This document shows, piece by piece, positions 6,341 through 58,696 of a stretch of DNA of 64,000 bases; positions within the stretch are counted from its first letter, which is position 1; every line of letters starts with the position of its first letter. The stretch lies in contig CAWARN010000005.1 in the NCBI GenBank assembly GCA_963784455.1, positions 142,005 through 206,004 on the forward strand, written 5' to 3'. The notes beneath the pieces were generated by a model. That model worked only from the letters and a program-made list of their open reading frames with translations. It was not told where the DNA came from and made no database searches. A program made the translations under genes and the position numbers. This DNA is from an uncultured Acidobacteriota bacterium (GTDB lineage Bacteria; Acidobacteriota; Vicinamibacteria; Vicinamibacterales; Fen-181).

Positions 6341-6904
6341 GCGCCACGGGACGTCTCCTCGCGGCATTCGCCGTGTCCTCGCTGGTCGCTGTCGGCGGCG
6401 TCGGGCGCCGGGGTCGCGGGCCCCGGTGCGGGGCGGCAGGCGATGGCCTGACCCGCGCACAGGCCGATGAAGCGGTTCGCGCCCACAACGCGTGGCGTGG
6501 ACGTGCCGGCGTGCCGCCGCTCCGGTGGGCCGAGGATCTTCGCGGTACGGGCTCAGACCCGCGCCGCGTATCTTGCCGGCCACGGATGCGACATCGTGCA
6601 CGGACCGCGGCCTGCTGATATCGGCGAGAACCTGTGCTGGGTGGGATCCGTACGCGCCGTCGGGCACAAGGACGAGTTGGACGCCGTCACGCCCGCCTGG
6701 GTCATCGACAAGTGGGGCGCGGAGTCCGCCGACTACTCCATCGAGCAGGGCACGTGCGCCCCGAATCGTCAGTGCGGTCACTATACCCAGGTCGTGTGGG
6801 CGACCAGCGCGGAAGTCGGCTGCGGCACGGCCGTGTGTCCGACGCTCGACCAGGTCTGGGTCTGCAACTACCGCCCGAGGGGCAATGTCCGGGGCGTGCG
6901 ATAG
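6337..6904 (+). pseudogene. CAP/SCP/PR-1 domain protein, one frame break as sequenced
   Basis: N-part in the frame of ORF 5656..6618 (LTRAQADEAVRAHNAWRGRAGVPPLRWAEDL). C-part in ORF 6467..6904 (AQTRAAYLAGHGCDIVH...GENLCW...CGHYTQVVWATSAEVGCGTAVC...WVCNYRPRGN). One extra base near 6541..6548 (cgcGGTACgg). 568 nt minus 1 = 189 codons. Confidence 0.75.
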
Positions 6905-9121
6905 CCGGGCCGCTCGCTACCCGGGGACATCGCGCCGGGAACGGGATCGGGCGGCTCCGCCGCCGCGGCCTGCGTTGCCAGGTACTGGTCAATCCCGTCC
7001 TCGATCTCGCGGGGGAAGCGCGGCGCCCGCCCGACGAGTTGGTCCTTGTAGACGCGGATCATAATGTCGCGGAAGATCGGCAGCGCAGCGCGCCCGCCCG
7101 TTTCGTTCGACCCCAGTGGACGATTGTCATCGAAGCCGATTCGGACCGCTACGGTGATCCCTTGTGTGCCGTAGGTGGACCCCACGAAGAGCGCATCGCG
7201 GAAATCGCTGGTCGTCCCGGTCTTGCCCATCACCGGCACGGGAAAGCCCCCGCCATCCAGGCTGTGGGCGGTGCCGTCGGGGAGACGGACCACGCCCCGG
7301 AGTCCTTCCTGGATCGCGCGCAGCGCGGCGGTACGGACCTCCCGCACGTTTCGCGGAGCCTCGTAGAGCCCTTCGCCTGTCGCACCGGTCACTCGATCGA
7401 CGACGTGCGGTTCCGCGAGCACGCCGGACGCGATGGCGCGATACGCGTCCGCCAACTCCAGAAGCCGAACCTCCGACGCCCCGAGCGCCGTGGACAGGTA
7501 GGGTTGCAGCGGCGACCGGATCCCCATCTCGTGCGCGGTTCGGATCACCGTGTCCACGCCGATTTCGCGCGTGATCCACACGGCCACCGCGTTGCGCGAT
7601 TCGGCCAGAGCCTGCCGCACAGGGATCGGCCCCTTGAACTGATGGTCGTAGTTCACGATCTGCTTGGTGCCTTCGCCCGCGCCGAGCGGGACCTCGATGG
7701 GCTCGTCCGGCACCGTCGTGTCGAGGTCGAGGCCGGATTCGAACGCGGCCAGGTACACCAGCGGTTTCATCGCAGAGCCTGGCTGGCGCAGTGAGCCGGT
7801 CACGCGGTTGTAGTCCGAATACCGCGTATCACGGTCTTTGTAGACCTGGCGCCCGCCGGTCTCGGCCAGGATCGCCGCGTCGCCATTGCGGAGCACGACA
7901 ACCGAGCCCTGAATGGCCCCTTTGGCCTTGGGGTGCCGCTTCTGGTACTGGGCCAGCCCGTGCTCGAGGGCGTCGTTCACGATCGTCTGCACCCGCGCGT
8001 CGACCGTCGAACGGACGACGATCCGACCCTGGAACAGGTCCTCGACTCCGAAGCGACCCTTGCCGTTCCGGGCGAGTTCGTCGAGGACGTGCTCGATCGC
8101 CGCCGGCGCGTCGGTCTTGTTCGGGTTGAGGGCCGCGACTCGAACCGGTTCACGCCGGCACCGCTCGGCCAGGGTCTGCAGGGATGTACCCGTTGCGCGC
8201 CATCAGGGCCAGTATCTGATTGCGGCGGGCGAGCGCCCGCCGATTCCCGGGCGCCGGGGCATACCCCTGCGGCGATTTGCTGATGGCCGCCAGCGAGGCG
8301 GCGTTCCCCGCATCGTCGGTGGTGTAGCTCGACAACGGTCTGTCGAAATCAGTACTCGGACGCCGCGGCATAGCCGTACCGGCCGTTGCCGAGATAGATG
8401 AAGCTGGCGTAGCGGGCGAAGATCTCGCGCTTGGCACTCTCCCGCGATCCATACCGTCGGCGCATCTCCTTCTCGAGCCAGATCGTCAGGCGGATCTCCT
8501 CCGCCTTCCGGAGGAGCTTGTTCGCGGCGGACGCCCCGAGGAGGGCAGACAGGAGCCGGGGCGGACCCATTCCGGCGTGGAAGACTGAGTCTCCATCGAC
8601 GCGACTCATCATGCCTTGGAGGAAGTAGCCGCGCACCAACTGCTGGGTGAGCGTCGATCCCCCCTGCGGCAGGAGCAGTCGGAACCCGTGGCCGCCCTTC
8701 CACCATTCGCTGACCGAGCGCGCCGTCGTCTTCTGGACCACCCGCGGCAGCGCCCGGTAGTCCACGCCGGAGTGACTGAAGAAGCGCTTGTCCTCGGCCG
8801 CCAGGATGGCCTGGCGCAGGATGGGGGGCACTTCGTCGTAGGTCACGACGCGGCGGTATGGCGCGCCAGTTGGATGAGGACCGCGCCGTGTGCGTCGCGG
8901 ACGACGCCGGTCGTGGGAGGCTCGAAGCGGATGAACGACTCGAGATTGGGCAGGCCGGACCAATCGAGGTCCACGTGGTGGACCAGCCAGACCGACGGGA
9001 TGAGAAGCAGCGCCGCGGGAACGAGTGCGACGGCGAGGAGCGCGATGCGGCGCCGGCGCGTGGCGGCCAACCGGGCGGCCGCACGCCGGACGACGCGCAG
9101 CTGGGCGAGGAGTGCGCGCAT
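6868..9121 (-). pseudogene. Class A penicillin-binding protein (PBP1A family: transglycosylase + transpeptidase), three frame breaks as sequenced
   Basis: Four pieces. TM anchor RRRRIALLAVALVPAALLLIPSVWLV (tail of 8843..9442). Transglycosylase ILAAEDKRFFSHSGVD...GGSTLTQQLVR (8349..9245). Linker FDRPLSS...SKSPQGY...RRNQILALMARNGYI (8150..8452). Transpeptidase SAMKP / SRNAVAV / KTGTT (6868..7992). Breaks near 8858 (-1), 8350 (+1) and 8180 (+1). 2254 nt -2 +1 = 751 codons. Confidence 0.9.
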
Positions 9122-9466
9122 GGCCGGCGGCGGCGTGATCTGGCGCCCTTGGGCAGGTAACAGGTTGTCGCGGCTGTCTCGAGCGGCAGCGCAGGCGTCG
9201 TCTTCGGGCCGGCCTTCGTGCCGGCCGCCCGGATAGGGCGTCCATGGACGTGTCGTGAGGTGGTCATAGATGACCTGACGGCACGCAGCGCGCTTGCCCT
9301 GAACCCACACGCCCCAGCATGACGAGAGCCGAGGATCGGCGTCTGTCCACTCTTGAACACGCTCACCACGTAGCCCCGAGTGACGGCTGTGCGTTTCTGA
9401 ACAGACGCCCGGCCAGCGGCCTGTCAAGGTGGGAGCGTTCACTCGTCAGCGAAAGGACGATTCGCC

Positions 9467-9742
9467 ATGACCATCACATTGCCGGGACTACTGCTCCTCA
9501 TCGTGATCGCGGCCGTCTGCGGCGCCATCGGGAAGGCGATCGCGGGCGGGGTCCGCGGCGGGCTCATCGTATCGACCGCTCTCGGGTTCATCGGCGCCGC
9601 GATCGGGCCGTGGGTCGCAGGCAAGCTCAGCCTGTCCGAGCCGCTCATGGTTCAGATCGGAGGGCGCCCATTCCCGGTGTTGTGGTCGATCATCGGCGCG
9701 GCGATCTTCGTGGCGATCATCCACCTGGTGTCGAGACGGTAG
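9467..9742 (+). CDS. GlsB/YeaQ/YmgE family stress-response membrane protein (transglycosylase-associated)
   Basis: ORF 91 aa with three Gly-rich TM helices (GLLLLIVIAAVCGAIGKAIAGG..GFIGAAIGPWVAG..WSIIGAAIFVAIIHLV). Confidence 0.85.
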   Translation: MTITLPGLLLLIVIAAVCGAIGKAIAGGVRGGLIVSTALGFIGAAIGPWVAGKLSLSEPLMVQIGGRPFPVLWSIIGAAIFVAIIHLVSRR

Positions 9743-9804
9743 GCGATCGCCTGCGCTCGGGACCGATGTGGGGAGGACGTAACTCGGGCGGACGGGAGGT
9801 TGGT

Positions 9805-10014
9805 ATGCGGCTGATCGGAATCGTGGTGCTCGCCGTCGGGATCCTCGCTCTCGCGTACGGCGGGTTCAGCTATACCCGAGAGACCCACGACGTCAAGCTG
9901 GGCCCCGTGGAGTTTTCGGTCAAGGAAAAGGAACGCGTCAACGTCCCGCTCTGGGCTGGAGTCGTGATGGCGGTCGCGGGCGCCGGGCTCCTGGTCGTCG
10001 GGACGAAGAAGTAG
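9805..10014 (+). CDS. Small two-TM membrane protein (69 aa), hypothetical
   Basis: Internal ATG of ORF 9319..10014, preceded by GGGAGG. MRLIGIVVLAVGILALAYGGFSYTRETHDVKLGPVEFSVKEKERVNVPLWAGVVMAVAGAGLLVVGTKK. Confidence 0.55.
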   Translation: MRLIGIVVLAVGILALAYGGFSYTRETHDVKLGPVEFSVKEKERVNVPLWAGVVMAVAGAGLLVVGTKK

Positions 10015-10044
10015 CGGGGTTGACGAGCAGGAGCCGCATGGCAC

Positions 10045-10251
10045 TCAGTGCCTCTGACCCTCCAGCCGACCTTCGAGTTGTTCGATGGTGGTTGCGGCGT
10101 CCCGAAGCAGCGTCTTCGTGGCGGAAAAGGCCACCATCCGGTCTGCGGCGTTGCGAAGCCGGCTCACGAGGTCCCGCACTCCGGGCGGCGCGGCCTCGCG
10201 AGGCGGATTCCCAGCCGCGGTGACTCCGCCGAGCGGCCGGAGCCCAATCAT
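10045..10251 (-). CDS. Hypothetical 68-aa helical protein, third gene of a coupled tricistron
   Basis: Internal ATG of ORF 10045..10539. It overlaps the upstream stop as ATGA. MIGLRPLGG...VRDLVSRLRNAADRMVAFSATKTLLRDAATTIEQLEGRLEGQRH. High GC3. Confidence 0.4.
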   Translation of the reverse strand: MIGLRPLGGVTAAGNPPREAAPPGVRDLVSRLRNAADRMVAFSATKTLLRDAATTIEQLEGRLEGQRH

Positions 10252-10490
10252 TTGCGTCCCGAGGCTGCCGCCTCGGCCACGGTGGTCGGCGCGCTTGTGT
10301 CGCCGCGCGACGGTGATGCCCGGTGGGTCGCCCACACGGCCGTTCCGGTCAACAGCGCCAGAGGGCCGGTGAGAACGAGCATCGTGAACGTGCCGACGGA
10401 CAGTCCTCGCGGTACGAAGATGGCCCACACGATGCCCATGAGCGCCGCCCATGCGAGCAGCGCCGTCCAACGGTTCGCATACCTGGTCAT
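10248..10490 (-). CDS. Hypothetical 80-aa membrane protein, second gene of a coupled tricistron
   Basis: Internal ATG of ORF 10248..10760, overlapping the upstream stop as ATGA. MTRYANRWTALLAWAALMGIVWAIFVPRGLSVGTFTMLVLTGPLALLTGTAVWATH (2 TM). Confidence 0.45.
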   Translation of the reverse strand: MTRYANRWTALLAWAALMGIVWAIFVPRGLSVGTFTMLVLTGPLALLTGTAVWATHRASPSRGDTSAPTTVAEAAASGRK

Positions 10491-10687
10491 ACAGCCTCGG
10501 TCTTCCTTCCGATGGATGGAGCCGGCCCACCGTTGCCACCCGGCGGTTCGGCGCTGGGAACGCTCGTCACGTCGGCGGCGGCGTGAAGCCGCAGGGTCGC
10601 AGCCGCGAGCCGCGAGTGCTCGCGCCGCTTCAGGCCGGCCTTTCGTCGCAGCTGGAATCTCGCCTTGTCGCCGTTCAATGCGGACAT
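10487..10687 (-). CDS. Hypothetical 66-aa basic protein, first gene of a coupled tricistron
   Basis: Internal ATG of ORF 10487..11005, with GGAG about 10 nt upstream. MSALNGDKARFQLRRKAGLKRREHSRLAAATLRLHAAADV... High GC3. Confidence 0.4.
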   Translation of the reverse strand: MSALNGDKARFQLRRKAGLKRREHSRLAAATLRLHAAADVTSVPSAEPPGGNGGPAPSIGRKTEAV

Positions 10688-10868
10688 CGTGGGTCGCTCC
10701 GTTTCCCGGGTTGCCGACAGGCCTGGCGCTGACAGTTCGTCGCGCCTGGCGCCGACACAACCACCCACTCGCATCATACGGTCGATGCGGTGCCGCTGTC
10801 TGTGCAGTTGTGCACAGATTGAGGCCCCAGGCGCCTCTATCATGGGAGCGGCGAGGATTGAGCAGTCA

Positions 10869-12866
10869 ATGGCGAAGCGACCATCGGACAGCGGGACGGC
10901 AGGGCGGGCCGGAGGCCCCTCCGCGGCTTCGAAGGGCTCGACCACGGTCGCGCCGAAGCGCCCGCGGCCGTGGTGGCTGGTCTTTGTCGTGGTCCTGCTC
11001 GCCAACTACCTGGGGATGCAGTTCCTCTTTCCAGAGCCGACCGCGATCACCATTCCGTATACCTTCTTCAAGAGCCAGATCGAGGCCGGCAATGTCGCGG
11101 ACGTCACCAGCGTCGGCGCGTCGATCGAGGGGAGCTTCAAGACCAAGACGACGTATCCCCCGCCAGTGTCCCCGGTGCCTCCAGGGGCACCGGGCACGGC
11201 ACCGGCGTCGCCTGCCGCCGGCCAGCCCAAGGCTCGCGAGTCGATGCAGTTCAAGACGCAGCGGCCCGCCTTCGCCGACCAGGATCTCGAGCGCCGCCTC
11301 GACGAGAAGGGTGTCGTCATCAAGGCCGTCGACGAGAACGCGTCATCCTTGTTCAAGCTGCTGGTCGGCTTCGGCCCGACCCTGCTGCTGATCGGCGCGT
11401 TCGTGCTGATGAGCCGCCGGGCGGCGGCGGCCGCCGGAGGCGGGCTCTTCTCGCTCGGGCGGAGTCGCGCCAAGCGCTACAGCGAGGAACAGCCGAAGGT
11501 CACCTTCGAGGACGTCGCGGGAATCGACGAGGCCGAGAACGAGTTGATCGAGATCGTCGACTTCCTGAAGAACCCCGCGAAGTACCAGCGGCTCGGCGGT
11601 ATGGTCCCGAAGGGCGTGCTGCTCATCGGCGCGCCCGGCACCGGCAAGACGCTGCTGGCGCGGGCGATTGCCGGGCAGGCCGGCGTGCCGTTCTTCAGCC
11701 TCAGCGCCTCCGAGTTCATCGAGATGATCGTGGGCGTCGGCGCCTCGCGCGTGCGGGACCTGTTCAAGCAGGCCAGGGAGGCGGCGCCGGCGATCATCTT
11801 CATCGACGAGCTGGACGCGATTGGCCGCACGAGAGGCAGCGGGGCGCAGCTCGGCGGCCACGATGAACGCGAACAGACCTTGAACCAGATCCTGACCGAG
11901 ATGGACGGCTTCGATTCCCGCGAAGGCGTCATCGTCCTGGCAGCCACCAACCGGGCCGATGTGCTCGACCAGGCGCTCCTGCGGCCGGGGCGCTTCGACC
12001 GGCGCGTCGTCGTTCAGCGTCCGGACCGCGCCGGTCGCGCCGCCATCCTCGCGGTGCACACCAAGAACGTGCCGCTCGCGCCGGACGTCTCGCTCGAACG
12101 CATCGCCGCCGAAACTCCCGGGCTGGTCGGTGCGGAATTGCGCAACCTGGTCAACGAGGCGGCCCTGCTGGCGGCTCGAAAGGACGGGAACACGGTGGGC
12201 GCCGAGGACTTTGCGGAAGCGCTGCAGAAGATCACCTTGGGGCCGGCGCGCAACATCCTGCTCATCCCGGCCGATCGCGAGCGCACCGCCTACCACGAAG
12301 CGGGGCACGCGCTCCTCGCGGTCCTGATGCCGGGCAGCGATCCGGTCCATCGCGTCTCGATCGTGCCGCGCGGCATGGCGCTCGGAGCGACCTACCTGCT
12401 GCCCGTCGACGATCGGACCAGCTACGCCGAAGACTACCTCCGGGCGCGCATCACCGGCGCGCTCGGTGGTCGGGCCGCGGAGAAGCTCGTCTATGGCGTG
12501 GCCACGACCGGAGCCGAGAGCGACCTTCAGCAGGTGACCGAGGTCGCCCGCCGCATGGTGTTGCGGTGGGGCATGAGCGAGAAGCTCGGGCCGGTCAGCT
12601 TCGTCACGCCCCAGGACGACGGCCTTCCGCCGGCGTTTCAGCACCAGCCCTACAGCGAGGCCACCTCCGAGGTGATCGACGCCGAGGTCCGGCGCATCGT
12701 CGAGGAGTGTCTTCGAGAGGCTGACCGCCTGCTGGCGGAGAACCGCCACAAACTCGACGCCCTCGCCCGCGCCTTGTTGAACGCCGAGTCGCTCAACGCG
12801 CAGGAGGTTCTCGAGGCCATCAACCCACGGGACTCTTCGGCGCCACCTCCACCGGCCCCGCCTTGA
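10869..12866 (+). CDS. ftsH: ATP-dependent zinc metalloprotease FtsH
   Basis: ORF 10665..12866. Walker [12 protein letters not shown] region, zinc site HEAGHAL, N-terminal [16 protein letters not shown]. Start placed at ATG 10869 (MAKRPSD); 10842 is also possible. Confidence 0.95.
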
Positions 12867-12963
12867 TGGCCACCTTCACCGCGTCTTCCAATCGTCTCCA
12901 CACCGGCCGGCCCGCCATTGCGGACACCGAGTTCTGCCCCGAGAGGGAATGTGGCAGCGAGTG

Positions 12964-13377
12964 CTACGGGGTGGGCGCCTGCGCGACGAACCTCAGTGCC
13001 GTGCCGTTCGTGCAGTAGCGGAGCCCGGTCGGCGCCGGGCCGTCGTCGAAGACGTGGCCCAGGTGGCCGCCGCACCGGCGGCAGTGCATCTCCGTGCGAA
13101 CCATGCCGTGACGGCGGTCGACGGTGGTGTCGACCGCGTCCTCGATCGCCGCGTAGTAGCTCGGCCAGCCGGAGCCGCTGTTGTATTTGGCCTCGGATGA
13201 GAACAACGGCGCGCCGCAGCCGGCGCAGACGAACCGGCCGTCGCGGTGTTCGGCGTTGTACGGGTGCGACCACGCGGGTTCCGTGCCGTGCTGCCGCAGC
13301 ACGCGGTACTCGTCGGGCGTCAGCGACGCCCGCCACTCATCGTCGGTCCTGCGCACGCCATCAGCCGTGTCGTCCAT
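12964..13377 (-). CDS. msrB: Peptide-methionine (R)-S-oxide reductase MsrB
   Basis: ORF 137 aa. CAGCGAPLF ... CRRCGGHLGHVF ... GLRYCTNG (two CxxC zinc pairs plus the catalytic Cys region). Confidence 0.95.
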   Translation of the reverse strand: MDDTADGVRRTDDEWRASLTPDEYRVLRQHGTEPAWSHPYNAEHRDGRFVCAGCGAPLFSSEAKYNSGSGWPSYYAAIEDAVDTTVDRRHGMVRTEMHCRRCGGHLGHVFDDGPAPTGLRYCTNGTALRFVAQAPTP

Positions 13378-13410
13378 ATCGCGTTCTCTGCCGGAAGCCG
13401 AGAGCCGTTT

Positions 13411-17197: not shown

Positions 17198-17582
17198 TCA
17201 CGGCTCGTAGAGATCGACGAATCCCAGGCGGGACATGCGCTCGAAATCCGAATCGAGCGACCACACGAGACTGCCTGATTCTGTGGCAGGGCCCCGATCA
17301 GCAGGTCACCGAAGCCGAAACGTTGACCAGCCGCGCCCGCGACGTCCACCCAGGCGTCCATCAACTGCCAGGTGTCTTCGGACGGGTGCAGAACGGGAAG
17401 CGCGGAGAGTGATCGCCGGAGGCGCGGGCGATCCAGTGCGGACGCGCCTGTCAGCAACTCGATGCGCACGGGAACAGCCAGACACGCCTCATCGGTATCG
17501 AGGAGCTCCGTAGCGTCTCCGCCTCTGCGGACGCGCCCGCCCGAAACGAGCGGACCCAGACCGAGGTATCGACGACGATCAT
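17198..17582 (-). pseudogene. vapC: PIN-domain toxin VapC, two frame breaks as sequenced
   Basis: Three frames. [25 protein letters not shown] (ATG 17582 overlaps the vapB stop as ATGA), ELLDTDEACLAVPVRIELLTGAS...GQRFGFGDLLIGAL (ORF 17041..17469), and ATESGSLVWSLDSDFERMSRLGFVDLYEP. Apparent 1-nt deletions near 17508 and 17288. 385 nt +2 = 129 codons. Confidence 0.7.
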
Positions 17583-17788
17583 GACCGAATCCCGCGAGGC
17601 CTTCGCCGGGAGCGGGCCACGTCCACGTCGAGCACCACCCGGCCGAGCAGGTCCTTCAGTTCGTCGACTCTCCGTCGTCGCACGAGCTCCCGCAGCGCAA
17701 GGACGATGGTGTCGGTCTTCGATTTGAATCCCAGCACCGACCGCGCCTCATCGACGAGTTCAGCCGGGAGATCGAGTGTCGTGCGCAT
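17579..17788 (-). CDS. vapB: Type II antitoxin VapB (ribbon-helix-helix type)
   Basis: ORF 17579..17803. The canonical N-terminus [40 protein letters not shown] starts at ATG 17788. Confidence 0.75.
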
Positions 17789-26124: not shown

Positions 26125-29413
<3,289 letters not shown>

Positions 29414-34853: not shown

Positions 34854-35566
34854 CGCACGCGGCCCGCATACTCCGCGTACCCTTCCAGTTCGGCACGGAG
34901 CGTGCGGTCCTCGAGAGCGGTGCGCACGACGACCACCACTCCAATCGCGGCGGCGATGGTCAGCGCCCACAGCGAGCCCAAGGCGAGAGCGACCCCGGGC
35001 ATGTGCACGATCGAGGCAAGGTAGCCCGGGTGCCGGACCAGCCGGTACGGTCCAGTGTCCACCACGTGGTGACCCCGGTCCCGCTGGATCCGGATGATGG
35101 CTGAAAAGAATCGGTTTGCGGCGACCGCCCGATTCGACAGCGCGCCGCCGAGCCCTATGAGCAGCAAGCCGGCCGCGTTCCACGCCGCGGACATCTGCGG
35201 GCTCCAGTGGAACCGCCGGTCGAAACCGCACGCGAGGAGGAGCGCCAGGGGGCCGACGCCACCGATGACGGCCACGAGCGGCTTGTCCCAGCGCTTCGCG
35301 TCTGCCGGAGGCCGCCGGCGCTCGGCCACCAAGTCGGGATGGCGGCCGAGGATCACCATGTAGCCGGCGAGCATCACGGTCATCAGACCCAGGTAGGCCC
35401 ACGCCGCGGGCCAGGCGAATGTGCCGGCGCACGCAAACAGCATCAGCCCGTAGGCGACCGTCGTCAGGGCAAGACGGATCCAATCGGCCAGGAGACCGCC
35501 GCTCGGCGCCCTTCCCTGGCCGGTGGCCGTCTGGTCTCCGCCGGGGCCTTCTGCCAGCACCGTCAC
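34826..35566 (-). CDS. Isoprenylcysteine carboxyl methyltransferase (ICMT/PEMT) family membrane protein
   Basis: ORF 246 aa, multi-TM, C-terminal signature VVDTGPYRLVRHPGYLASI...RTALEDRTLRAELEGYAEYAGRVRYRLLPGVW. The GTG start overlaps the upstream stop (GTGA). Confidence 0.8.
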   Translation of the reverse strand: MTVLAEGPGGDQTATGQGRAPSGGLLADWIRLALTTVAYGLMLFACAGTFAWPAAWAYLGLMTVMLAGYMVILGRHPDLVAERRRPPADAKRWDKPLVAVIGGVGPLALLLACGFDRRFHWSPQMSAAWNAAGLLLIGLGGALSNRAVAANRFFSAIIRIQRDRGHHVVDTGPYRLVRHPGYLASIVHMPGVALALGSLWALTIAAAIGVVVVVRTALEDRTLRAELEGYAEYAGRVRYRLLPGVW

Positions 35567-36541
35567 TTCTTCTTGCTCGCCTCTTCGAGCGAGGTGACGA
35601 GGAACGCGATCTCCTCGTCGCTGAGCTTCTTCTTCACCGTCTGGAGCATCGTCTTGAAGTGCGCGATCTCGTCGGGCTGTGCGGGGAACCCGGTGTTTCC
35701 CTTGGGGCCCGTGCTGTGAATCAGCGCCTTTCCGTCACCGTCGAGGAACGCGAACCACGGCAGGCCCTGTTCCTTGTCGATATAGCGCTTCTCGATCTCC
35801 TTCGCGCCCTTCGCACGGTCGTAGTCGAGCTTCGCGAAGACGAATTCCCTGGCGAGCAGCGGTGCGACATCCTTGGACGCCATCCAGGCGCCCAGCCTGT
35901 GGCAAAACGTTCACCACGGGGCCGTGAACCAGAGAAAGACGGTACTTGCCGTCCTTCTTCGCCTGGCTCAGGGCGGCCCTGAATGGCGGATCGGCATCGG
36001 GCGCCGGCGCCTGGTGTTTCTCGAGGAACGCGGCGAATTTCTTCGGATCGACGGTGGCGGGGTCGTCGCCCGCCATCTCCGTCGCCGACGCGTTCGCCAG
36101 GACCTTGCCGTGTGCGTCCAGGACGGTAAAGTAAGGCAGGGCTCCGGGCGCCGGCTTCGCGCCGTACGCCGCGGCCACGTCCAAGTTCCTGTCGATGCGG
36201 CCGACGTCCACGTAGACGAGCTTGTACTCATCCGAGAAGAACCGCGGCGTCGTGATTTCCGGCGACCGCTGCACCTGCGTGAACTTCGTCGAGCGCTCGT
36301 CGTCGTTCGCGCCCCAGTTGATCAGGACGCGAATGTCGCTCTCTTCGGCGCCCGCGGTGGCGGTGGCGATCAGCGCCTTCGCGTCGGCCGTCTCGCTGTA
36401 GATCTTGCGCGGCGCCTGCGGCTGACGAGGCGCCGCCGTCGGCGTCGCCGGCACGCTCTGTTGCCGCGGCGGTGCCTGCTGCGGCGGCGGAGGCGCCTGG
36501 CCGCTCATCGCCAGGAGGAGCGGCAGGAAATGAAGAACCAT
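35563..36541 (-). pseudogene. Secreted two-domain thioredoxin-fold protein; candidate selenoprotein (TGA at the first position of U-x-x-C). One frame break as sequenced
   Basis: ORF 35735..36541 (MVLHFLPLLLAMSG..., first Trx-like domain, ...SQAKKDGK) joins after one extra base at 35941..35946 (plus-strand GGTAC) to TVFLWFTAPW-TGA-TFCHRLGAWMASKDV..., which runs into ORF 35563..35883. TGA at 35911..35913. 979 nt minus 1 = 326 codons. Confidence 0.65.
35874..35894 (-). promoter_or_regulatory. SECIS-like stem-loop 17 nt 3' of the in-frame UGA
   Basis: mRNA UGGGCGCC-UGGAU-GGCGUCCA: an 8-bp stem (one G.U pair) with a 5-nt apical loop containing GG. The loop starts 25 nt after the UGA. Confidence 0.45.
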
Positions 36542-39370: not shown

Positions 39371-41133
39371 CTACCTCGACACCATTTCCATCGTGCGCAG
39401 CACCGGGTAGTACTGCGGCGCTGGCGTCGCGCCCAGCACCGGGTCCAGGATGTTCCACGCCATGAGCCCGTCGTCCGAACGCGGATCGAACAGCATAAAC
39501 GCCAGCCGCGCCAGCGGCTGATCCATCGGCACCACCACCGACCCGGCCGGGATCGTCTGTTCGACGGTCTCCCACTTGCCGGTCAGCGTGCGCATCTTGT
39601 GCGTGCCCTGGTACTCGCGATCGGCCAGCACGTTGGTGTCGATCACGAACCGCTCGCCCTTGAACGACGTCTCCTTCTCGGTCTTGAAGAACCTGACACC
39701 GTGGGCCTCGAGGCGATCGACGACGCTCGCCATGGCTCGGCTGGACGGGCTTCCGCCCCCGCCTCTCGGCGCAGCGGGAGGAGCCACGGGTGATCCCGCG
39801 GCTGGCGGCGCCGACGCGGCGAGCGGCATCACGTAGAACCGCGGCGCCAGGCTCGTCTCGGTGGGGGAGGTGGTGGCATAGTGCCCCGCCGTCTCGCTCT
39901 TCTCGCCTCCCGGCACGCGCTTCCGGAAGGGCCGGTCGGGCACGTACGGATTCCGTTCGCTGACAGTCTGCGCCGTGACGATCGTCACGGGATCAGGCGC
40001 CTTGACGAGTTGCTGGCGCACCGCCAGCTGCGTGCCGGCGACCGACTCGCGCTCCGCCGCGGCGACGGTGTTTCGCACCGTCTCGCCGTTCTTCACGGCG
40101 AAGTCGATGACCTCCTCGAGAAACCAGTAGGTCGCCTTGATCCTGTCCTCGAACGAGGCGTACGAGTAGGTCTCCACGAGGATGCCGAGCTTGTTCCGCA
40201 CGCCGAAGTACGTCGAGGTGTAGCGCGGCTTGGCCAGTTCGGCGTCGGACGCCCAGGCGCGCTCGCTGCCGCCGCGCATCATGCCGCCGTAGTAGAAGTA
40301 GTCCCAGCCGTGCTTCGCCTTGACCGCCCTGGTCACCTGCGGGAGAAGGACGTTGCGCAGCAACCCGACCGTCGCCTTCGAGTCGTTCGGATTGAGCGAC
40401 GTCTCGTAGGTGAGGTAGAAGCCGCTGTCGGCGCTCCCGTCGGTCGTGTGGAGGTCGATAGCCATCTGCGGGTCGTACGCCGTGAGCAGCATGGCGAGCG
40501 AGCGGGCCTCGGCCGTCTCCATCTTCGTGCAGTCACGGTTCAGATCGAGGTTCTGCGCGTTGGTGCGCTGGCCCATCCCGCCGACGGGGCCGTTCTGGCT
40601 TCCGCGGTTCGCCACGTTGACGCGTTCGTTGCCGTCGGCGTTGTAGATCGGGTTGATGAGCAGGACGACCGACTTGAACCACTCGGCGCGCTCGCCTTTC
40701 GCGATGGAGCGGAGCAGCCAGAGCAGCGCCTCCTTCCCTTCGACTTCACCGGCGTGGATGTTCCCCTGGATGTAGATCCGCGTCTTCTTCGCGGCGAGCA
40801 CCGCTTCGGCGGTCGCGGCCGGGGCGCCGATGACGGCGAGCGGCATCGGTCGGCCCTCGTACGTGTAGCCGTAGGTCGTCATGTGGATCTGCGGCGACGC
40901 GGCGGCCATGGCCTTCATGTACGAGACGACCTCGTCGTACCGAGCTCGTTTCCGCGTAGTTCGTCGCCTCGGGTCGCGTCAGCGGCCACTTCGAGGCGGC
41001 AGGCCCGGCCGGAGTGGCCGCGGGCCTGGCGGGCGCCACCGGTTGAGAGCGTCGGGGCCTGCGCCGCCAAGGCGGCGACGAGCGCGCACGCGAGCATCAC
41101 ACCAGGAACGATGGTGGATAGGATCTTCCGCAT
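39371..41133 (-). pseudogene. Secreted M14 family metallocarboxypeptidase, two frame breaks as sequenced
   Basis: Signal peptide MRKILSTIVPGVMLACALVAALAAQAP (tail of ORF 40915..41307). Then VAPARPAATPAGPAASKWPLTRPEATNYAETSS (ORF 40746..41039). Then YDEVVSYMKAM... in ORF 39371..40918 (zinc site NIHAGEVEG, DLHTTDGS). Extra bases near 41035..41043 and at 40937..40941 (GTACC). 1763 nt minus 2 = 587 codons. Confidence 0.85.
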
Positions 41134-42131: not shown

Positions 42132-43541
42132 GTGTCAGCACACCTCGCGGCTTCCGCGGCTCTGCTGGCCCTCGCCGTCGCGTCGGGCGGGTCGGCACAG
42201 ACCCGACCCGCCGAGGCGCGCCAGGCGAGCGCAGGATCCCTCGCCGCTCGACGGACACCCGTCGAGGAGCCGTCGGCCGCCGACCGGAGCCGTGCGACGG
42301 TTGTCCGCGCCGGCGTCCGCTCGGTGGCCGTCGCCGAGGTGTTCGGCGTCAACCTGGTCTACAACCTCATCAACCAGGCTCTGCCGACCGAGTACAGCGG
42401 CGACTTCAGCGTCAGCCACGACACGCTGGCGCGACAACATCGGCCACGGATTCACCTGGGACAACGATCCGTTCATCGTCAACCAGTTCGGCCACCCCTA
42501 CCAGGGCGGTAACTACTTCTCGGCGGGCCGCGCGCAACGGGCTGAGCTACTGGGAGTCGATCCCGCTGACCGCGCTGGGCAGCGTGACGTGGGAGTGGTT
42601 CGGCGAGAGCACCCACCCGGCGTGGAACGACGTCATCAACACGACGATGGGTGGCGCGGCGTTCGGTGAAGTGCTCCACCGGATGGCCTGGCTCGTGCGG
42701 GACCCTCGCCAGACCGGCCGGTCTCGGCTCTGGCGCGAGATTGGCGCCACGGTGATCGACCCATCGGAGGACTGAACCGGTTCGGATGGCGCGAGGCGCT
42801 TCGCCCAGGGGAGAAGCCGGCGACGTGTCGGCCGAGTCGCGCGATGGCCGAAGTCCAGCTTGGCCTCTCGTGGCCTGAGGGCGACCTTCGCGCGGAAGGC
42901 TCATCGCCGAAGAACGTGTTCGGATCGTTCGCCCTCGACTACGGGGCGCCCGAGCGAGGCCCGACCGAGGCTCCGTTCGACGCATTCTCGATGGCGGTCC
43001 GGGTCGGCGGCGGTGCGACCGTGTCGGCCGCGGCCGATTCGCGGCCGGCTCGCCAGCCGGCCGCTGGGCAGCTTGGACCCGCTCGCACACCAACTCATCG
43101 TCGCCCAGGACTACGGCTACCGAGAGGCCCCTGGATTCCTGTTCGGCGAGCAGAGCGTCGTCGGCGGCCTCGCCAGCCGGGTCGAACTGCGCCCGGGCGT
43201 GTCGATCTCGACGACGGCGGTCGGCGGCGTCATCGCCGCTCGGAACCATCGACTCGGCGGCGGAGCCGCGCGCCAACCGCGCGTTCGACTACGGTCCGGG
43301 CGTGACGGCCTCCGGGTCGGCGGAACTGACGGTCCGCGGTTTGCCGGTGCTCGGCGTGGAGGCGGCGGTGTGGTGGATGCACACGGTGACGCGCGGGCCG
43401 GCCGACCACGCACTGTCGCTCGTCCGCGCGAAGGGCCGGGTCCCGCTCTTCCGCGGCATCCACGTCCTGGTGGAGGCCGAGCGGGTGACGCGCGACAGCC
43501 GGGTGGACGGCCGTTCGGATCAAGCGGCTGACGGGCGCTGA
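42132..43541 (+). pseudogene. DUF3943-like secreted/outer-membrane protein, five frame breaks as sequenced
   Basis: Pieces: signal MSAHLAASAALLALAVASGGSAQ...SVSHDT; WRDNIGHGFTWDNDPFIVNQFGHPYQGGNYFSAGRA; NGLSYWESIPLTALGSVTWEWFGESTHPAWNDVINTTMGGAAFGEVLHR...; ...AEVQLGLSWPEGD...; ...LIVAQDYGYREAPGFLFGEQS...; ...FDYGPGVTASGSAELTVRG... Breaks near 42426, 42533, 42766, 43036 and 43240. 1410 nt -4 +1 = 469 codons. The family call is from memory of the HPY-G-x-YF motif. Confidence 0.55.
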
Positions 43542-51298: not shown

Positions 51299-51366
51299 GT
51301 GCTTCGACTCGCAATCACGGCCACGGACGGCTTTGGGTACACGTGGCCGGCTGCGCTCGCTCAGCA

Positions 51367-51420
51367 CTCAGTCCTGAGGGCACAAGTCACGTCGCCGTGT
51401 TTGTGCATCGAAGGACTGAG
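51367..51420 (+). other. Nested imperfect hairpin downstream of the TonB-dependent receptor gene
   Basis: Outer stem CTCAGTCCT (51367..51375) / AGGACTGAG (51412..51420). Inner stem GCACAA (51380..51385) / TTGTGC (51401..51406). No U tract. Confidence 0.3.
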
Positions 51421-51519
51421 CGGCGGCGAGTTCAGGGCGGCTTTTCGACCCGCCCGCTCGCGCGACTCGCGCATCGGTTAGCCTCCGGAGCGGGGATGCC
51501 GGAGTGGTATTATCCGATC

Positions 51520-52779: not shown

Positions 52780-53705
52780 ACCTCCGGGGCGACGGCCATG
52801 TCGTCGAGCGCCAGTCCGAGGTTGATGGCGATGGTCCGCTGTCTGGCGTCGGCGCGCCCCGTCTTGATCCCCGCCACCAGTTCGCCGAGATCGGCGTCGG
52901 GATCGGGCGTGTGCTGGAAGTACCCGACGCGGCGGTAGTACTGGAACTGGGCATGGTCGTCGGTCGTCAGCCGGTCGAATTCGGCCAGTGCGGCCGGCGA
53001 CCAGTAGCTGTCGAAATCCACCGCGCTCGCGAATCCGCCTGGCTTCAGCCATCCCGGCTGAATGGTGGGAACCGGCTGCCGGAGGATCGGGCCGGATGTG
53101 ACGACGATGTCGCTTTCGGCGACGGCCGTGCGCGCGTCGTCGACACCCGAGATTTCAATGCCGATCTTCCGACCCATCTCCTCGACGAACAGGCGCTGCA
53201 CGTCCGGCGCGATGTCGTACGCCAGCGCCCGCTTCACCGGGAACTCGAGCGCCAATGCCTCGAGGTGCGTGCGCCCCTGGACGCCGCACGCCAGAATGCC
53301 CACGGTCCCGCTCTCCGGTCGTGCCAGGTATCGCGCCGACAGCGCGGAGGCGGCGGCCGTGCGGCAGGCCGTGATCCAGGTGCAGTCCATCACGGCGTAG
53401 GGGAGGCCGGTGTCGACGTCGTTGAGGACGATCAGCCCGCTGATGTACGGCAGGCCGGCTGCGCGGTTCTCGGGATAGCCGCTCACCCATTTCACGCCGG
53501 CCGCCCGCATGGCGGGAATGAAGGCGGGCATCGCGTGGATGAACGCGTCCGGCTTGGTGTGAATGCCCGGCTTGGGCGGCATCTCGACGCGCCCGTGCCC
53601 CTTTTCTCGGAATGCGGCCTCGAGCAGATCGATGATCGTTCGGGGCTCGAGCCCGACGCTGGCCACGTCGGTGGCGGAGAGGTAGAGCAGTTTCTGAGCG
53701 TCCAT
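52731..53705 (-). CDS. Ornithine cyclodeaminase / mu-crystallin family protein
   Basis: ORF 324 aa. Rossmann GILACGVQGRTHLEAL. Family-typical N-terminal region. Intact. Confidence 0.85.
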   Translation of the reverse strand: MDAQKLLYLSATDVASVGLEPRTIIDLLEAAFREKGHGRVEMPPKPGIHTKPDAFIHAMPAFIPAMRAAGVKWVSGYPENRAAGLPYISGLIVLNDVDTGLPYAVMDCTWITACRTAAASALSARYLARPESGTVGILACGVQGRTHLEALALEFPVKRALAYDIAPDVQRLFVEEMGRKIGIEISGVDDARTAVAESDIVVTSGPILRQPVPTIQPGWLKPGGFASAVDFDSYWSPAALAEFDRLTTDDHAQFQYYRRVGYFQHTPDPDADLGELVAGIKTGRADARQRTIAINLGLALDDMAVAPEVYRRAAARGLGTWLPL

Positions 53706-53846
53706 GCGGAGCGCCCCTACTATATCCCTTTCCCACCAGCCCGCTTTGTGCCTCCGCTCCGCCAGGTTTCGTTGTGCCCGGCTTGGCCGGCCTGTATCAT
53801 GGTTGATGGCCCGGCCTTGCGGTGCCGCTCAAGGGAGAAACGTCGA

Positions 53847-55220
53847 ATGAAGAGACTACCCGGATCTCGAGTCGCAGCGTGCCTTGCGCTCGCCATGCTG
53901 TGCGCTGCGGGCGCGGCGGCCCAGGTGCCGACGATCATCGCCCCATCCAACATCATCCTGCCCAACTTCAACGGCCAGCAGCCCGGCGTGACGGGCAGCC
54001 TCGAGGCGGGCGCCATGGTGGCGCGCGGCGACGACGCGTCGGCCACGTGGTACAACCCGGCCGGGCTGTCGAGAATCGAGTCGTCCAGCATGACCGGCAG
54101 CGCCGGAGCAATCCAGTGGCTGTGGGTGTCGCCGAACGCGTTTCCGAACAACGCCTACTCGGCGACGCACCTGCCCGTCCAGCTCGGCCTCGCGTGGAAG
54201 GAGCCGTTCGACTACGTCGGGTGGACGATGGCGTTCAACTTCTCGTCGAGCAACAGCTGGCAGGACGATCTGAGCTCGGAGCTGCAGGTCGGCACGGCAC
54301 AGGCCCCTGAACGGTTCGCGTACACGGCGTCGTCGAAGTTCAGCCGCTATGTGGCCAGCGTGGGCGGCGGCTACACCCCCGACAAGAAGCTCCGGTTCGG
54401 CGGCAGCCTCGATGTCGAGTTGACGCGCATCAACCAGGCGCAGTCGGTCAACGACCGCATCCTCGGCACGCCGCGGCTCACGTCGCTGCTCGTCGCCTGG
54501 TACTCGAACGCGGCGTTCACCCACCTGCGCGCGACGCTCGGCATGCAGTACCAATTCAACGAGAAGCTCACGGTCGGCGGCACGGTCAAGACGCCCGGCA
54601 TCGCGATGTCGAACGGCGGCTCGGCTGGCATGGACGCGACGCTCTACAAGAACGGCACCACCACCAACCTCTCCTACTACGACGGCAGCCCGACGATGAA
54701 GTACAAGGTGCCGTTCGAGTTTGCGGGCGGCGTGGCCTACAACGTCGGGAAGATGACGGCCGAGGGCGACGTCCGGATCACCCAGGGCGGCGGCGTCTAC
54801 GACTTCTTCGCCCCGAACCGGACGGTCACCGGCATCGTCGACACCGGGACCAGCCCGGCGCAGGCCGTCGAGACGAAGTTCCGCACCTACAAGGTGGACC
54901 AGCGGTCGGTGGTGGACGTCCGCGTCGGCGGGCGCATCCTCCTCTCCGAGTCAGGCAAACTGACGCTGCACGGCGGCGTGGCGACGAACAACTCACCGGT
55001 CGGCGAGTCCGACGAGGTGTTCCAGAAGGCGAACCTGCTGCGCTTCACCGTGGGAATGAGCGGCGAAAAGGGGCGGTTCTTCTTCGCGGGCGGCCTCGAC
55101 TACCAGGCCGGTACGACGCCGCTGTACGCCGTCTACACGGCGCAGAACGGCCAGGTCATCAACACCACGGTCAAGGCCGAAGGGCTCTCGCTGGTGTACT
55201 CGTTCGGGCTCCGGTTCTAG
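53847..55220 (+). CDS. Putative outer-membrane beta-barrel protein (FadL/TodX-like)
   Basis: ATG 53847 inside ORF 52911..55220, preceded by GGGAG. Signal peptide MKRLPGSRVAACLALAMLCAAGAAAQ, alternating beta-strand pattern, C-terminal SLVYSFGLRF ending in Phe. Confidence 0.6.
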   Translation: MKRLPGSRVAACLALAMLCAAGAAAQVPTIIAPSNIILPNFNGQQPGVTGSLEAGAMVARGDDASATWYNPAGLSRIESSSMTGSAGAIQWLWVSPNAFPNNAYSATHLPVQLGLAWKEPFDYVGWTMAFNFSSSNSWQDDLSSELQVGTAQAPERFAYTASSKFSRYVASVGGGYTPDKKLRFGGSLDVELTRINQAQSVNDRILGTPRLTSLLVAWYSNAAFTHLRATLGMQYQFNEKLTVGGTVKTPGIAMSNGGSAGMDATLYKNGTTTNLSYYDGSPTMKYKVPFEFAGGVAYNVGKMTAEGDVRITQGGGVYDFFAPNRTVTGIVDTGTSPAQAVETKFRTYKVDQRSVVDVRVGGRILLSESGKLTLHGGVATNNSPVGESDEVFQKANLLRFTVGMSGEKGRFFFAGGLDYQAGTTPLYAVYTAQNGQVINTTVKAEGLSLVYSFGLRF

Positions 55221-55250
55221 CGAACGCGTCTCGACGATTGGGGCGCTGTC

Positions 55251-56882
<1,632 letters not shown>

Positions 56883-57045
56883 AACTGGCGGGTGTCTCCC
56901 CGGCAAGACAGCTGTCGTTCGGTGGGGACAGCGGACGGTCGGCCTGATGAACGATCTTGTCTGAAACCGGACGTTTTCGGGTGAACACAGGCTGACGTTC
57001 ACTGGCCCGGAGATTGCTGGTCTCCTCAATCGGAGGGTTTTCGCC

Positions 57046-58021
57046 ATGCGACGGAAACTTCAACTGATGATGCTGATCGCCGTGATTCCCATGGCGCTCG
57101 CGCTGATTCCTGCGGCCGCCGAAGCTCAGCGGGGCGGGCGTCCCGCGGGAGGGGCGCCGCCGCCGGCTGCCAGCCGGCCGCCGGCAGGGCACCCGCAGGG
57201 AGGGGCGCCGCCGCCGGCCGCCAGCCGGCCGCCGGCAGGGCACCCGGGCGGTGGATACCCGGGCGGAGGGACGGTCGTCGTTCGGGGCGGCTACGGTGGC
57301 TACTACGGCTACCCGTACATGGGACTCGGCTGGGGCTGGGGACCGTATTGGGGCTCCTACTGGGGTGGTCCGTATTGGGGCTATCCGTATCCGGTACTGG
57401 GGTGGCGGCTCGTACGACATCGGCGCCGAGCTGCGGCTGGAGGTGAAGCCGAAGCAGGCCCAGGTCTACGTCGACGGCTACTACGTCGGCATCGTGGACG
57501 ACTTCGACGGCACCTTCGAACGCCTGCATTTCAAGGCGGGCGACCACGAACTCGTTCTCTACCTCGAGGGCTACCAGACGGTGAAACAGAACGTCAGGCT
57601 GGGGCAGCGGCAAGAGGGGAAGATCAAGTTCCAGATGACGCCACTGGCCGCCGGTCAGACGGCGGAACCGCCCCCGCAGCCGAGACCCGAGCCGCCCCAG
57701 GACGCGTATGTGAACGACCAGGCGCCACCGCCGCCGCGCCCCGCGCCTCAGCGGGCGCCGGCTGGAGGGGCCGTGAGCATGGAGGCCCAGGGCTTCGGGT
57801 CGCTCGTGATCCGCGTCCAGCCCTCCGGGTCGGAGGTCTTCATCGACGGCGATCGCTGGCAAGGGCCCGAGGGTTCGGAGCGGCTGGTCATTCAGGTGCC
57901 GGCCGGGTCACACAAGATCGAGGTGCGCAAGGAGGGATCCGTTCCGTTCTCCACCACGATCCAGGTGCGGTCGGGCGAGACGCTGCCCCTCAACGTGAGT
58001 CTGCCCATCAAGGGCAACTAG
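57046..58021 (+). pseudogene. Secreted PEGA domain protein with Pro-rich repeat and Gly/Tyr/Trp-rich segment, one frame break as sequenced
   Basis: ORF 57046..58038 up to ...GGPYWGYPYP, then ORF 57251..58021 (YWGGGSYDIGAELRLEVKPKQAQVYVDGYYVG..., second PEGA-like domain LVIRVQPSGSEVFIDGD). One extra G at 57393..57397 (ccgGGTACtgg). 976 nt minus 1 = 325 codons. Confidence 0.75.
57148..57249 (+). repeat. 51-nt tandem duplication (2 copies, 1 mismatch) inside the PEGA gene
   Basis: Encodes GGAPPPAASRPPAGHPQ twice; the copies start at about 57148 and 57199. Confidence 0.8.
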
Positions 58022-58034
58022 CCGGAGGCGTTCC

Positions 58035-58696
58035 GTGATGAACAGATTCGCCAGATCGATGACTGGCATAGTGGCCGCCTGCCTGGTGGCGCTGGCGGTG
58101 ACCGCGACGACGGCGCACGCGCAGGATGCGGCGGCTGGCGGGCAGCGGCCGCCCGCTCTCCAGCAGGGGCCGATGGTTGTCGAGCCGATTGGCAGCGGCT
58201 TCGTCCTGATGCCGGAGGTTCGGTGGACCGAGCTGAACCACGCGTGGGGCACGCAGTTCGGCGCATCGGGCGGCTGGGTGGTACGACGACAGGTTCTTCT
58301 TCGGCGGTGGCGTGGTACTGGCTGGTCGGCGGCGCCGGCGACCAGCAGTTGACCTACGGCGGCTTCATCACCGGTTGGAGCGCGCCTATCACCAGGTCGC
58401 TGCACGTGGGCGTGCGCGGACTCCTTGGCTGGGGGCATGCCGACACATTCGAGGAGTGGACTGACCCCGGCTACTGCCATCACGGGAGCTGCTATGGCCC
58501 GTCGACCCAGAAGGCGTGGGTGTACCGGGACTTCGTGGTGTTCGAGCCGTCGGTGAACGCGACGATCCGGCTTGCCAGGCAGCTGTCGCTCGACGTCTCC
58601 GGCGGCTACCGCCTGACGGGCAACAGTTACTACGGGTCGGACGACCACGTGAACGGGGCTTTCGGCAGCGTCGGGATCCGCGTGGGCGTGTTCTAG
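58035..58696 (+). pseudogene. Small outer-membrane beta-barrel-like protein, two frame breaks as sequenced
   Basis: ORF 58035..58352 (signal MMNRFARSMTGIVAACLVALAVTATTAHAQ ... GASGGWV), then YDDRFFFGGGV, then ORF 58223..58696 (YWLVGGAGDQQLTYGG...GSVGIRVGVF ending in Phe). Extra G at 58280..58284 and at 58314..58318, both gtgGGTAC. 662 nt minus 2 = 220 codons. Confidence 0.6.

Follow-up and report, generated by a model that had tools for sequence, protein, structure and literature searches.

R10.4.1 assemblies of bacteria carry methylation-induced errors that are mostly A/G and C/T substitutions (Lohde et al. 2024, PMC11610573; Liu et al. 2024, PMC11610603), and these strain-specific, motif-bound nanopore errors survive Medaka (PMC11610573, PMC11610603). 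The Microflora Danica (MFD) long-read catalogue was generated from R10.4.1 data with Guppy sup, Flye and one Medaka round, without short-read polishing (PMC12313526). Methyltransferases specific for GTAC include M.RsaI, which produces m4C (PMC6256690), and M.HpyAXII, which produces m6A (PMC2588503).

The frame breaks in the stretch of DNA analysed here (64 kb, hereafter the window) resemble the published methylation errors in that a short motif recurs, a fraction of its instances is affected and the errors are strand-biased. Unlike those cases, the errors are 1-nt insertions, mostly of a doubled G, together with one deletion, the modification is putative, and the GTAC motif is absent from one of the two papers. 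The breaks also resemble the residual indels of low-coverage MFD MAGs (PMC12313526), which are likewise single-base, frame-breaking, private to each MAG and biased towards insertions; in contrast to the sister MAGs, where errors are scattered over G+C-rich contexts, the window is alone in having one 4-mer account for a third of its errors. This 4-mer is the palindromic target shared by the RsaI/M.RsaI and HpyAXII/M.HpyAXII systems, although no such gene was seen within the 64 kb, part of a contig of at least 375 kb, where a search of all coding frames with a methyltransferase motif IV regular expression ([DNS]PP[YFWH]) returned two hits, both in proteins that are not methyltransferases. Moreover, GTAC is only mildly under-represented in the window (163 observed vs 200 expected), a depletion too slight to indicate a restriction-modification (R-M) system. 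Finally, the reading frame resumes elsewhere after one extra base, as it does in programmed +1 ribosomal frameshifting and in genuine pseudogenes. In contrast to both, the homologues read straight through and conserve the shift in no case, a slippery or stimulatory context is lacking, and dozens of unrelated genes are broken.

The window has a G+C content of 68.7% and contains 163 GTAC, 42 GGTAC and 39 GTACC sites. A catalogue of 28 localised frame breaks, comprising 22 insertions and 6 deletions, was built from alignments to relatives, independently of the first-pass annotation that had pointed to GTAC. The affected genes include those for PBP1A (three breaks), a beta-galactosidase, an M14 carboxypeptidase, a sigma-54 regulator and a histidine kinase, among others; the main features are collected in Table 1. 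Ab initio detection (a codon-LLR Viterbi model, sliding left/right frame scans and per-site tests of deleting the G) was dropped in favour of the alignments, as it recovered at most 1-6 of 8 known sites, though the frame map was useful. Breaks spaced 34-100 nt apart, and the weak discrimination that 20-40 codons provide at 69% G+C, left it too insensitive and too coarse. Excluded as ordinary same-strand gene junctions were 9733/9805, 17612/17615 (a VapB/VapC-like pair), 21904/21906, 35565/35566 and 62374/62376, and the uncertain compensated indel pairs 11834/11847, 19875/19879 and 28968/28976 were omitted. An Rfam search of the entire window gave zero hits.

Table 1. Frame breaks in the window, with the evidence locating them.
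Gene	Position	Strand	Break	Support
CAP-domain	6539..6548	+	+1; candidate extra base T/C at 6540-41 or G at 6544; GTAC at 6545	blastx, blastn
PBP1A	8172..8189	-	+1; 6-8 nt from GTAC 8186	32/34 to 41/45 relatives
PBP1A	8350..8355	-	+1; C inserted 2 nt 5' of GTAC	28/34 to 45/45 relatives
PBP1A	8856..8860	-	-1; C of conserved GTAC lost (8859)	33/34 to 44/46 relatives
GH2 beta-galactosidase	27903..27907	+	extra G in GGTAC	7/7 relatives, PDB 6s6z alignment
beta-galactosidase	28001..28003	+	-1, away from GTAC; T lost from TACCGTCCGG	6/7 relatives
beta-galactosidase	28380..28384	+	extra G in GGTAC	5/5 relatives, PDB alignment
thioredoxin-fold	35941..35945	-	extra G in GGTAC (gene orientation: C after GTAC)	L061
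M14 carboxypeptidase	40937..40941	-	extra C (40941) in GTACC	L001
DUF3943	42425..43236	+	five non-GTAC breaks: 42425 +1, 42535 +1, 42763 -1, 43036 +1, 43236 +1	pairwise alignment to L001
PEGA-domain	57393..57397	+	extra G (57394) in GGTAC	L002 reads CCG-TAC
218-aa outer-membrane-type protein	58280..58284	+	first extra G in GGTAC	gap vs L138
same 218-aa outer-membrane-type protein	58314..58318	+	second extra G in GGTAC, 34 nt downstream	gap vs L138
sigma-54 response regulator	62801..63620	+	four non-GTAC breaks near 62805-15, 63019, 63422-34, 63581	frame segmentation

For ten of the 28 breaks there is a GTAC within 2-4 nt, where 0.6-0.9 such breaks would be expected (P about 1e-10 to 5e-9), and at a cut-off of 2 nt the expectation for the same ten is 0.57 (P = 1e-10). 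The earlier claim of an enrichment far above chance was thus borne out by counting. Similarly, 8 of about 20 insertions that double a G or C fall in GGTAC or GTACC, contexts to which 0.68% of GG/CC dinucleotides belong (P = 6e-13), and an unbiased 4-mer scan around the breaks ranked GGTA and GTAC first. The same scan revealed no significant enrichment of a second error motif, including GATC, which had been hinted at by the breaks at 42763, 43036 and 43517. About 10 of the 163-164 GTACs are affected (about 6%), and identical 8-mers may be error-free (52938, 46435). The GTAC-linked events amount to ten 1-nt insertions and one 1-nt deletion, indels alone being scorable against relatives that are 80-90% identical.

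Alignments to relatives, at the DNA or protein level, show all eight sites listed in the first-pass annotation to be real +1 frame breaks, and two breaks in PBP1A, at 8350 and 8859, were added to them as GTAC-linked. The proposed repair, deletion of one G from GGTAC or one C from GTACC, is exact at seven of the eight sites, the exception being the CAP gene. Here, blastx against two relatives (L009 and L017) changes frame from +0 to +1 at WAEDL/AVRAQTRAAYL, and with blastn 2/2 relatives show a gap at 6540-41. Deletion of the T/C would give DLAVRAQ and deletion of the G DLRVRAQ, while the relatives have DLAARAQ; because the former fits the relatives better, the extra base is more likely the T/C 4-5 nt 5' of GTAC than the G itself. 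Pfam CAP positions 69-117 sit in the downstream piece of the broken gene. It had further been stated that the repair always restores an x-Tyr reading. This phase holds, but it is not informative: 134 of the 143 coding GTACs are in phase xxG/TAC, so the regularity is just a matter of codon phase and codon usage.

The remaining alignments are specific as to the base gained. At 27903, where the break interrupts Pfam Glyco_hydro_2_C at profile position 222 of 302, the window reads GGAGGTACTGG and 7/7 relatives read GGA-GTACTGG; the repaired junction LKE/YWDVF aligns to NLKDYWDVI of PDB 6s6z, and the junction repaired at 28380, PGAE/YWLNVSF, aligns to DSEYFLEISF. The relative of the thioredoxin-fold gene reads GAC-GTACTTG, and that of the M14 gene, which is intact at 542 aa, reads GTAC-GAG at 40941, the sole event located 3' of GTAC in the + strand orientation. 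The outer-membrane-type region aligns to a JGI contig (L138) over 2127 nt at 90% identity with only two gaps, which are the extra Gs (58281, 58315). The repaired 218-aa protein is 93% identical to its homologue P0079 without gaps, and the tyrosines at the two sites, Y82 (58280) and Y93 (58314), are invariant, Y82 across 8 homologues.

Two PBP1A breaks had also been placed close to GTAC. This stands for 8350, where the window reads AAATCAGTACTCGG and the relatives AAGT-AGTACTCGG, while the association of the break at 8172-8180 (CTGCAGGGATGTACC in the window vs CT-CGGGGATGTACC) with GTAC is borderline. At 8859 the window reads GGTA-TGG where relatives have GGTACTC/GGTACTGG, GTAC being present in 40/44. 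An extra G before GTAC is therefore the usual event, but as a rule it is too narrow, since an upstream C, an upstream T/C and a C deleted within GTAC also occur. The surrounding context appears in the counts as well: on the + strand 9-10 events lie 5' of GTAC and 1 lies 3' (P about 0.02-0.04), the base following GTAC is T or G in 10/10 events, and GTACTGG is affected at 5/9 sites compared to about 6/155 other GTACs (Fisher 5.5e-5).

The closest relatives of the window are nanopore-only MFD MAGs (ERZ.../'contig_N' assemblies), and the contig is itself most likely a nanopore MAG of this type. In the alignment of the 2-kb PBP1A gene, about 51 private frameshift indels are spread over 22 MFD MAGs, compared to 0 in 13 non-MFD MAGs. 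The sister MAGs have 2-10 indels per kb in this gene, with insertions outnumbering deletions 43:8, an insertion excess as in the window. Indels adjoining GTAC account for 3 of 51-61 in the sister MAGs vs 10 of 28 in the window (Fisher 4e-4 to 1e-3), and the AGTACTCGG and GGTACTC/GGTACTGG contexts, with the GTACs matching window 8352 and 8859, are error-free in about 22 MFD MAGs. Judged from these alignments, a bias towards GTAC is a property of this assembly alone. As in the MFD relatives, the nine window proteins tested all lie on a single NCBI+ENA contig (375 kb); they occur on no other, and a search for a short-read contig of the same strain therefore gave no second assembly. The breaks away from GTAC in the DUF3943 gene (family by Pfam DUF3943), which is intact at 482 aa in L001, are an illustration of background consensus-indel noise. 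In the sigma-54 regulator, the breaks are 22 nt or more from any GTAC, and the Pfam Sigma54_activat match starts at nt 63020 with profile position 66, next to the break at 63019.

The reading we favour, with a probability of roughly 0.6, is that the breaks are errors of a nanopore-only consensus with a systematic focus at GTAC, most likely arising from modification of GTAC in this organism. The clean state of the same GTAC contexts in about 22 sister nanopore MAGs makes base modification at GTAC the leading, as yet unproven, candidate cause, with methylation as its presumed form. The scattered single-base insertions would then be the background noise of a nanopore-only consensus without short-read polishing, while a methyltransferase of the RsaI/HpyAXII type would place m6A or m4C on GTAC. 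The modification could distort the current signal across a few surrounding bases, the commonest outcome being a doubled call of the G (xGTAC to xGGTAC), with insertion of a base 2-8 nt upstream or loss of the C as rarer ones. Where coverage is modest, polishing may then leave the extra base in place at a minority of GTACs (about 10 of 164). Several observations count against methylation: the strong one-sidedness, since a palindrome modified on both strands does not predict one side; the insertion-type errors, since the published R10.4.1 methylation errors are mostly substitutions; the small affected share of GTACs together with identical clean 8-mers; the slight depletion of GTAC; and the negative outcome of the motif IV search for a methyltransferase in the window.

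The one-sidedness and the insertion-type errors also lend some support to a rather unlikely alternative, namely artefacts unrelated to methylation, in which GTAC-type contexts were a weak point of the run, model or polisher in this sample only. Candidates for such a weakness are a Guppy/Medaka model mismatch, 4 kHz vs 5 kHz data, or very low, strand-unbalanced coverage, and MFD data do combine Guppy versions and sampling rates (PMC12313526). It would agree with errors that are one-sided on the contig strand, with the influence of context beyond GTAC (GTACTGG, and T or G as the next base), with insertions in place of the substitutions typical of methylation errors (PMC11610573, PMC11610603), and with single insertions in two sister MAGs (L049, L052) inside the GTAC aligned to window 7945. 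On the other hand, about 22 MFD MAGs from several samples are clean in the same contexts, the indels of the sister MAGs lack GTAC enrichment, and a single palindromic 4-mer, a classic target of R-M systems, is not what a generic weakness should pick. Considerably less probable is that the true target is a longer asymmetric motif containing GTAC, or that the modification chemistry is unusual, as the 5' one-sidedness (9-10/11), the following T or G and the preference for GTACTGG might suggest; a true insertional hotspot would be even less likely.

Very little speaks for the insertions being real, whether through a mutational hotspot at GTAC, which had been offered as the alternative to a consensus error, or through recent pseudogenisation in this lineage. 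There is no direct support for either, whereas about 28 frameshifts in 64 kb, three of them in PBP1A alone, would have to have arisen without accompanying nonsense codons or large deletions. The repaired beta-galactosidase (about 1090 aa), PEGA and outer-membrane-type products contain zero internal stops, and repaired products match intact homologues without gaps at 90-93% identity. None of the breaks was common to any of the 5-45 relatives examined per site (support 5/5 up to 45/45), and similar private indels flood the sister nanopore MAGs while being absent from non-MFD MAGs. Breaks that are private to the assembly and lie in essential conserved genes without other decay support an artefact, and the conclusion that they probably stem from assembly and not from biology is well supported by these comparisons; the hotspot is accordingly disfavoured, and the earlier suggestion of a systematic consensus error agrees with the private breaks, the intactness of the repaired genes and the abundance of indels in the sister nanopore MAGs. 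Chance or cherry-picking, conceivable in that the sites were picked by eye and the xxG/TAC phase is common, is already refuted by the enrichment count from the independent catalogue and by the 4-mer scan.

The value of the finding is practical, not biological, in that the 64 kb, part of a public MAG, would owe some 28 seeming pseudogenes to sequencing artefacts, a third of which one simple rule could mend. Gene calls, pseudogene counts and completeness estimates would be distorted for this genome, and probably for other nanopore-only MAGs of the catalogue. Frame breaks by themselves can raise the suspicion of a methylation-type motif, which offers a cheap flag for methylation-aware re-basecalling or re-polishing. 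For the organism, the pattern yields a testable prediction, that GTAC is modified, and if the improbable longer motif were the true target, a modification of an uncultured Vicinamibacterales-like acidobacterium would be readable from assembly errors alone.

Breaks, that is, single-base indels shifting the reading frame, were catalogued across the window by frame segmentation and alignments to relatives, leaving out ordinary gene junctions and compensated pairs. In the resulting set of 28 localised breaks, ten were no more than 2 nt away from a GTAC or destroyed one, compared to 0.57 expected (binomial P=1e-10), and the number was still 10 within 4 nt (P=5e-9). The window has a G+C content of 68.7% and contains 163 GTAC (mildly under-represented, with 200 expected), 42 GGTAC and 39 GTACC. 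GGTAC/GTACC represent only 0.68% of the GG/CC dinucleotides, yet accounted for 8 of approximately 20 G/C-doubling insertions (P=6e-13). In a blind 4-mer enrichment around the window breakpoints, GGTA and GTAC were the top words, and as no other 4-mer was significant after multiple testing, no second error motif was found. The first-pass annotation had described an excess of breaks at GTAC far above chance, and this observation is confirmed and slightly extended. The accompanying remark, that repair always restores an x-Tyr reading, describes a real regularity, though one that follows from codon usage, since 134 of the 143 GTACs in coding sequence stand in the phase xxG-TAC.

Pfam matches agreed with the gene names assigned earlier (Transgly and Transpeptidase, CAP, GH2, M14 and PEGA). 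The extra G or C at each GGTAC/GTACC site listed below was confirmed by alignment to relatives. When both Gs were removed, the beta-galactosidase gave an unbroken alignment to the solved Thermotoga enzyme 6s6z across both junctions (glkeYWDVf/nlkdYWDVi and pgaeYWLNVSF/dseYFLEISF). Similarly, the repaired outer-membrane-type product (218 aa) matched a JGI protein over its full length with 93% identity and without gaps, and the DNA of the region aligned to that JGI contig over 2127 nt (90% identity), the gaps being exactly the two extra Gs.

Frame breaks at or near GTAC, by gene and window position (L001, L002 and L061 are aligned loci of relatives)
Gene	Position	Window	Relatives
PBP1A	8172-8180	+1, 6-8 nt from GTAC 8186	
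PBP1A	8350	inserted C, 2 nt before GTAC	
PBP1A	8859	C of GTAC lost; GGTA-TGG	GTAC present in 40/44; GGTACTC/GGTACTGG
Beta-galactosidase	27903	GGAGGTACTGG	GGA-GTACTGG in 7/7
Beta-galactosidase	28380	GGAGGTACTGG	GAG-TACTGG in 5/5
Thioredoxin-fold gene	35941		L061: GAC-GTACTTG
M14 peptidase	40941		L001: GTAC-GAG; gene intact, 542 aa
PEGA gene	57394		L002: CCG-TACT
Small outer-membrane-type protein	58281 and 58315	two extra Gs, one per site	

Alignment of PBP1A with approximately 45 relatives revealed three window-private breaks. Two had previously been placed within about 6 nt of a GTAC; the one at 8350 stands, while the one near 8180 is borderline. The third, at 8859, is a GTAC-linked error that is invisible without the relatives' sequences. 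At 8177-8182 the borderline break makes CTGCAG (a PstI site) where relatives read CT-CGGGG, and the insertion adjoins a G-to-A difference. In the CAP gene, the frame switches from +0 to +1 at approximately 6540, so the break is real. The base proposed as surplus, the G before GTAC at 6544, is a different matter: its deletion yields DLRVRAQ, whereas deletion of T/C at 6540-41 yields DLAVRAQ. Since the relatives have DLAARAQ and the gap falls at 6540-41 in the blastn alignments, the event is better described as near GTAC than as a doubled G.

Nine of ten intact window proteins looked up in a public protein collection were found on one and the same contig only (NCBI and ENA), and members of the 90% clusters of the window proteins were annotated as Vicinamibacterales. 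The relatives' loci L001 (ERZ25039459 contig_42132) and L002 (ERZ25039554 contig_5064) were 87-94% identical to the window at the DNA level. The PBP1A transpeptidase fragment, used as query against species-representative genomes, matched 53 loci; roughly half belonged to MAGs named 'MFD...bin', whose contig names are Flye-style. These MAGs originate from the Microflora Danica (MFD) long-read study, which used nanopore sequencing, Guppy super-accurate basecalling, Flye assembly and one round of Medaka, without short-read polishing (PMC12313526). Searching metagenomes with the beta-galactosidase added 80 loci, for the most part JGI contigs.

The window breaks are consensus errors, probably of nanopore-only data like those of the MFD study. 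The repaired genes contain no internal stops and are 90-93% identical to intact homologues, an essential gene is hit by three breaks, and no window break is shared by the aligned relatives. In the PBP1A multiple alignment, private frameshifts numbered 0 in 13 MAGs of other projects and approximately 51 in 22 MFD MAGs (19 of them in the locus L049 alone), and the ratio of insertions to deletions was similarly skewed in the MFD MAGs (43:8) and the window (22:6). In a crude frame-change test, the proportion of GG/CC positions that were flagged was 1.2% for the window, 1.5% for MFD loci and 0.2% for the remaining assemblies. The absence of stops after repair, the private nature of the breaks and the MFD indel contrast bear out the earlier preference for a systematic consensus error over a true mutational hotspot; the pattern reflects the assembly and is no biological feature.

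In the window and the sister MFD MAGs alike (PBP1A alignment of L005-L053), single-base insertions far exceed deletions, the inserted bases being mainly G or C outside long homopolymers. Such an error spectrum is unusual in nanopore consensus sequences, possibly reflecting how the Flye/Medaka pipeline behaves at low coverage. Breaks distant from GTAC cluster: a 0.8-kb part of a DUF3943 gene holds five (42425-43236), and a part of similar length in a sigma-54 response regulator gene holds four (62801-63620), a distribution more suggestive of locally reduced read support than of a sequence motif. Near the 3' end of an Aminotran_5 (MOSC-type sulfurtransferase-like) gene, two extra bases lie 4 nt apart (60115-60119; CGGCAGATCGAG vs CGG-AGA-CCAG in L002); with them the product has 499 aa, compared to 478-480 aa in relatives. 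The weakly coding stretch 10012-10928 is approximately ten single-base indels apart from the relative L040 (92% identity). On the minus strand at 17514-17788, an apparent VapB-like antitoxin is followed by about the first 33 codons of a PIN (VapC-like) toxin, the remainder lacking coding signal down to approximately 17160; the toxin gene is possibly truncated or riddled with errors. Also on the minus strand, a gene spanning approximately 35566-36529 reads TGA, in frame, in place of the first Cys of a thioredoxin-type redox motif (35895-35920; P W TGA T F C H R). L061 keeps it (P W TGA G Y C H R), and the TGA probably encodes a selenocysteine (UxxC) of a putative selenoprotein rather than a stop. 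No Rfam matches were found in the window.

Methylation is the best available explanation for the GTAC errors, as a candidate only: base modification of GTAC in the source organism would produce motif-bound consensus errors surviving polishing. Nanopore errors that are motif-bound, strain-specific and persist after Medaka have been documented (PMC11610573; PMC11610603), and methyltransferases are known that place m4C (M.RsaI; PMC6256690) or m6A (M.HpyAXII; PMC2588503) at GTAC. A motif-IV regex search of coding frames revealed no methyltransferase in the 64-kb window, and the depletion of GTAC there is only mild; both count as caveats to the methylation reading. A run- or model-specific artefact without methylation stays a serious rival, since published methylation-induced errors are mainly substitutions whereas those at GTAC in the window are, but for one deletion, insertions, and the events are both one-sided and context-dependent, neither of which is predicted by a symmetric palindromic modification. 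Viewed on the plus strand, 9-10 events have the surplus or missing base on the 5' side of GTAC and one has it on the 3' side (P ~0.02-0.04), regardless of gene strand (6540-58318); T or G follows GTAC in every GTAC-linked event, and 5 of 9 GTACTGG sites are affected (Fisher 5.5e-5). A generic basecaller weakness is unlikely, as identical GTAC contexts (AAGTAGTACTCGG, GGCGGTACTC/TGG) are error-free in approximately 22 sister MFD MAGs and only 3 of 51-61 indels there touch GTAC, compared to 10 of 28 in the window (Fisher 4e-4 to 1e-3), which points to an organism- or run-specific cause. Two sister MFD loci, L049 and L052, each carry an extra base within the GTAC aligned to 7945-7948 (GTA[G]C and GTA[A]C, respectively), and in L049 a further insertion precedes the GTAC aligned to 8859 by 7 nt. 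Both may share the GTAC-linked problem, though with 19 indels in 2 kb of L049 chance is possible. In practice, the findings call for caution among users of the MFD MAG catalogue, and the methylation reading predicts that GTAC would be modified in the source organism.
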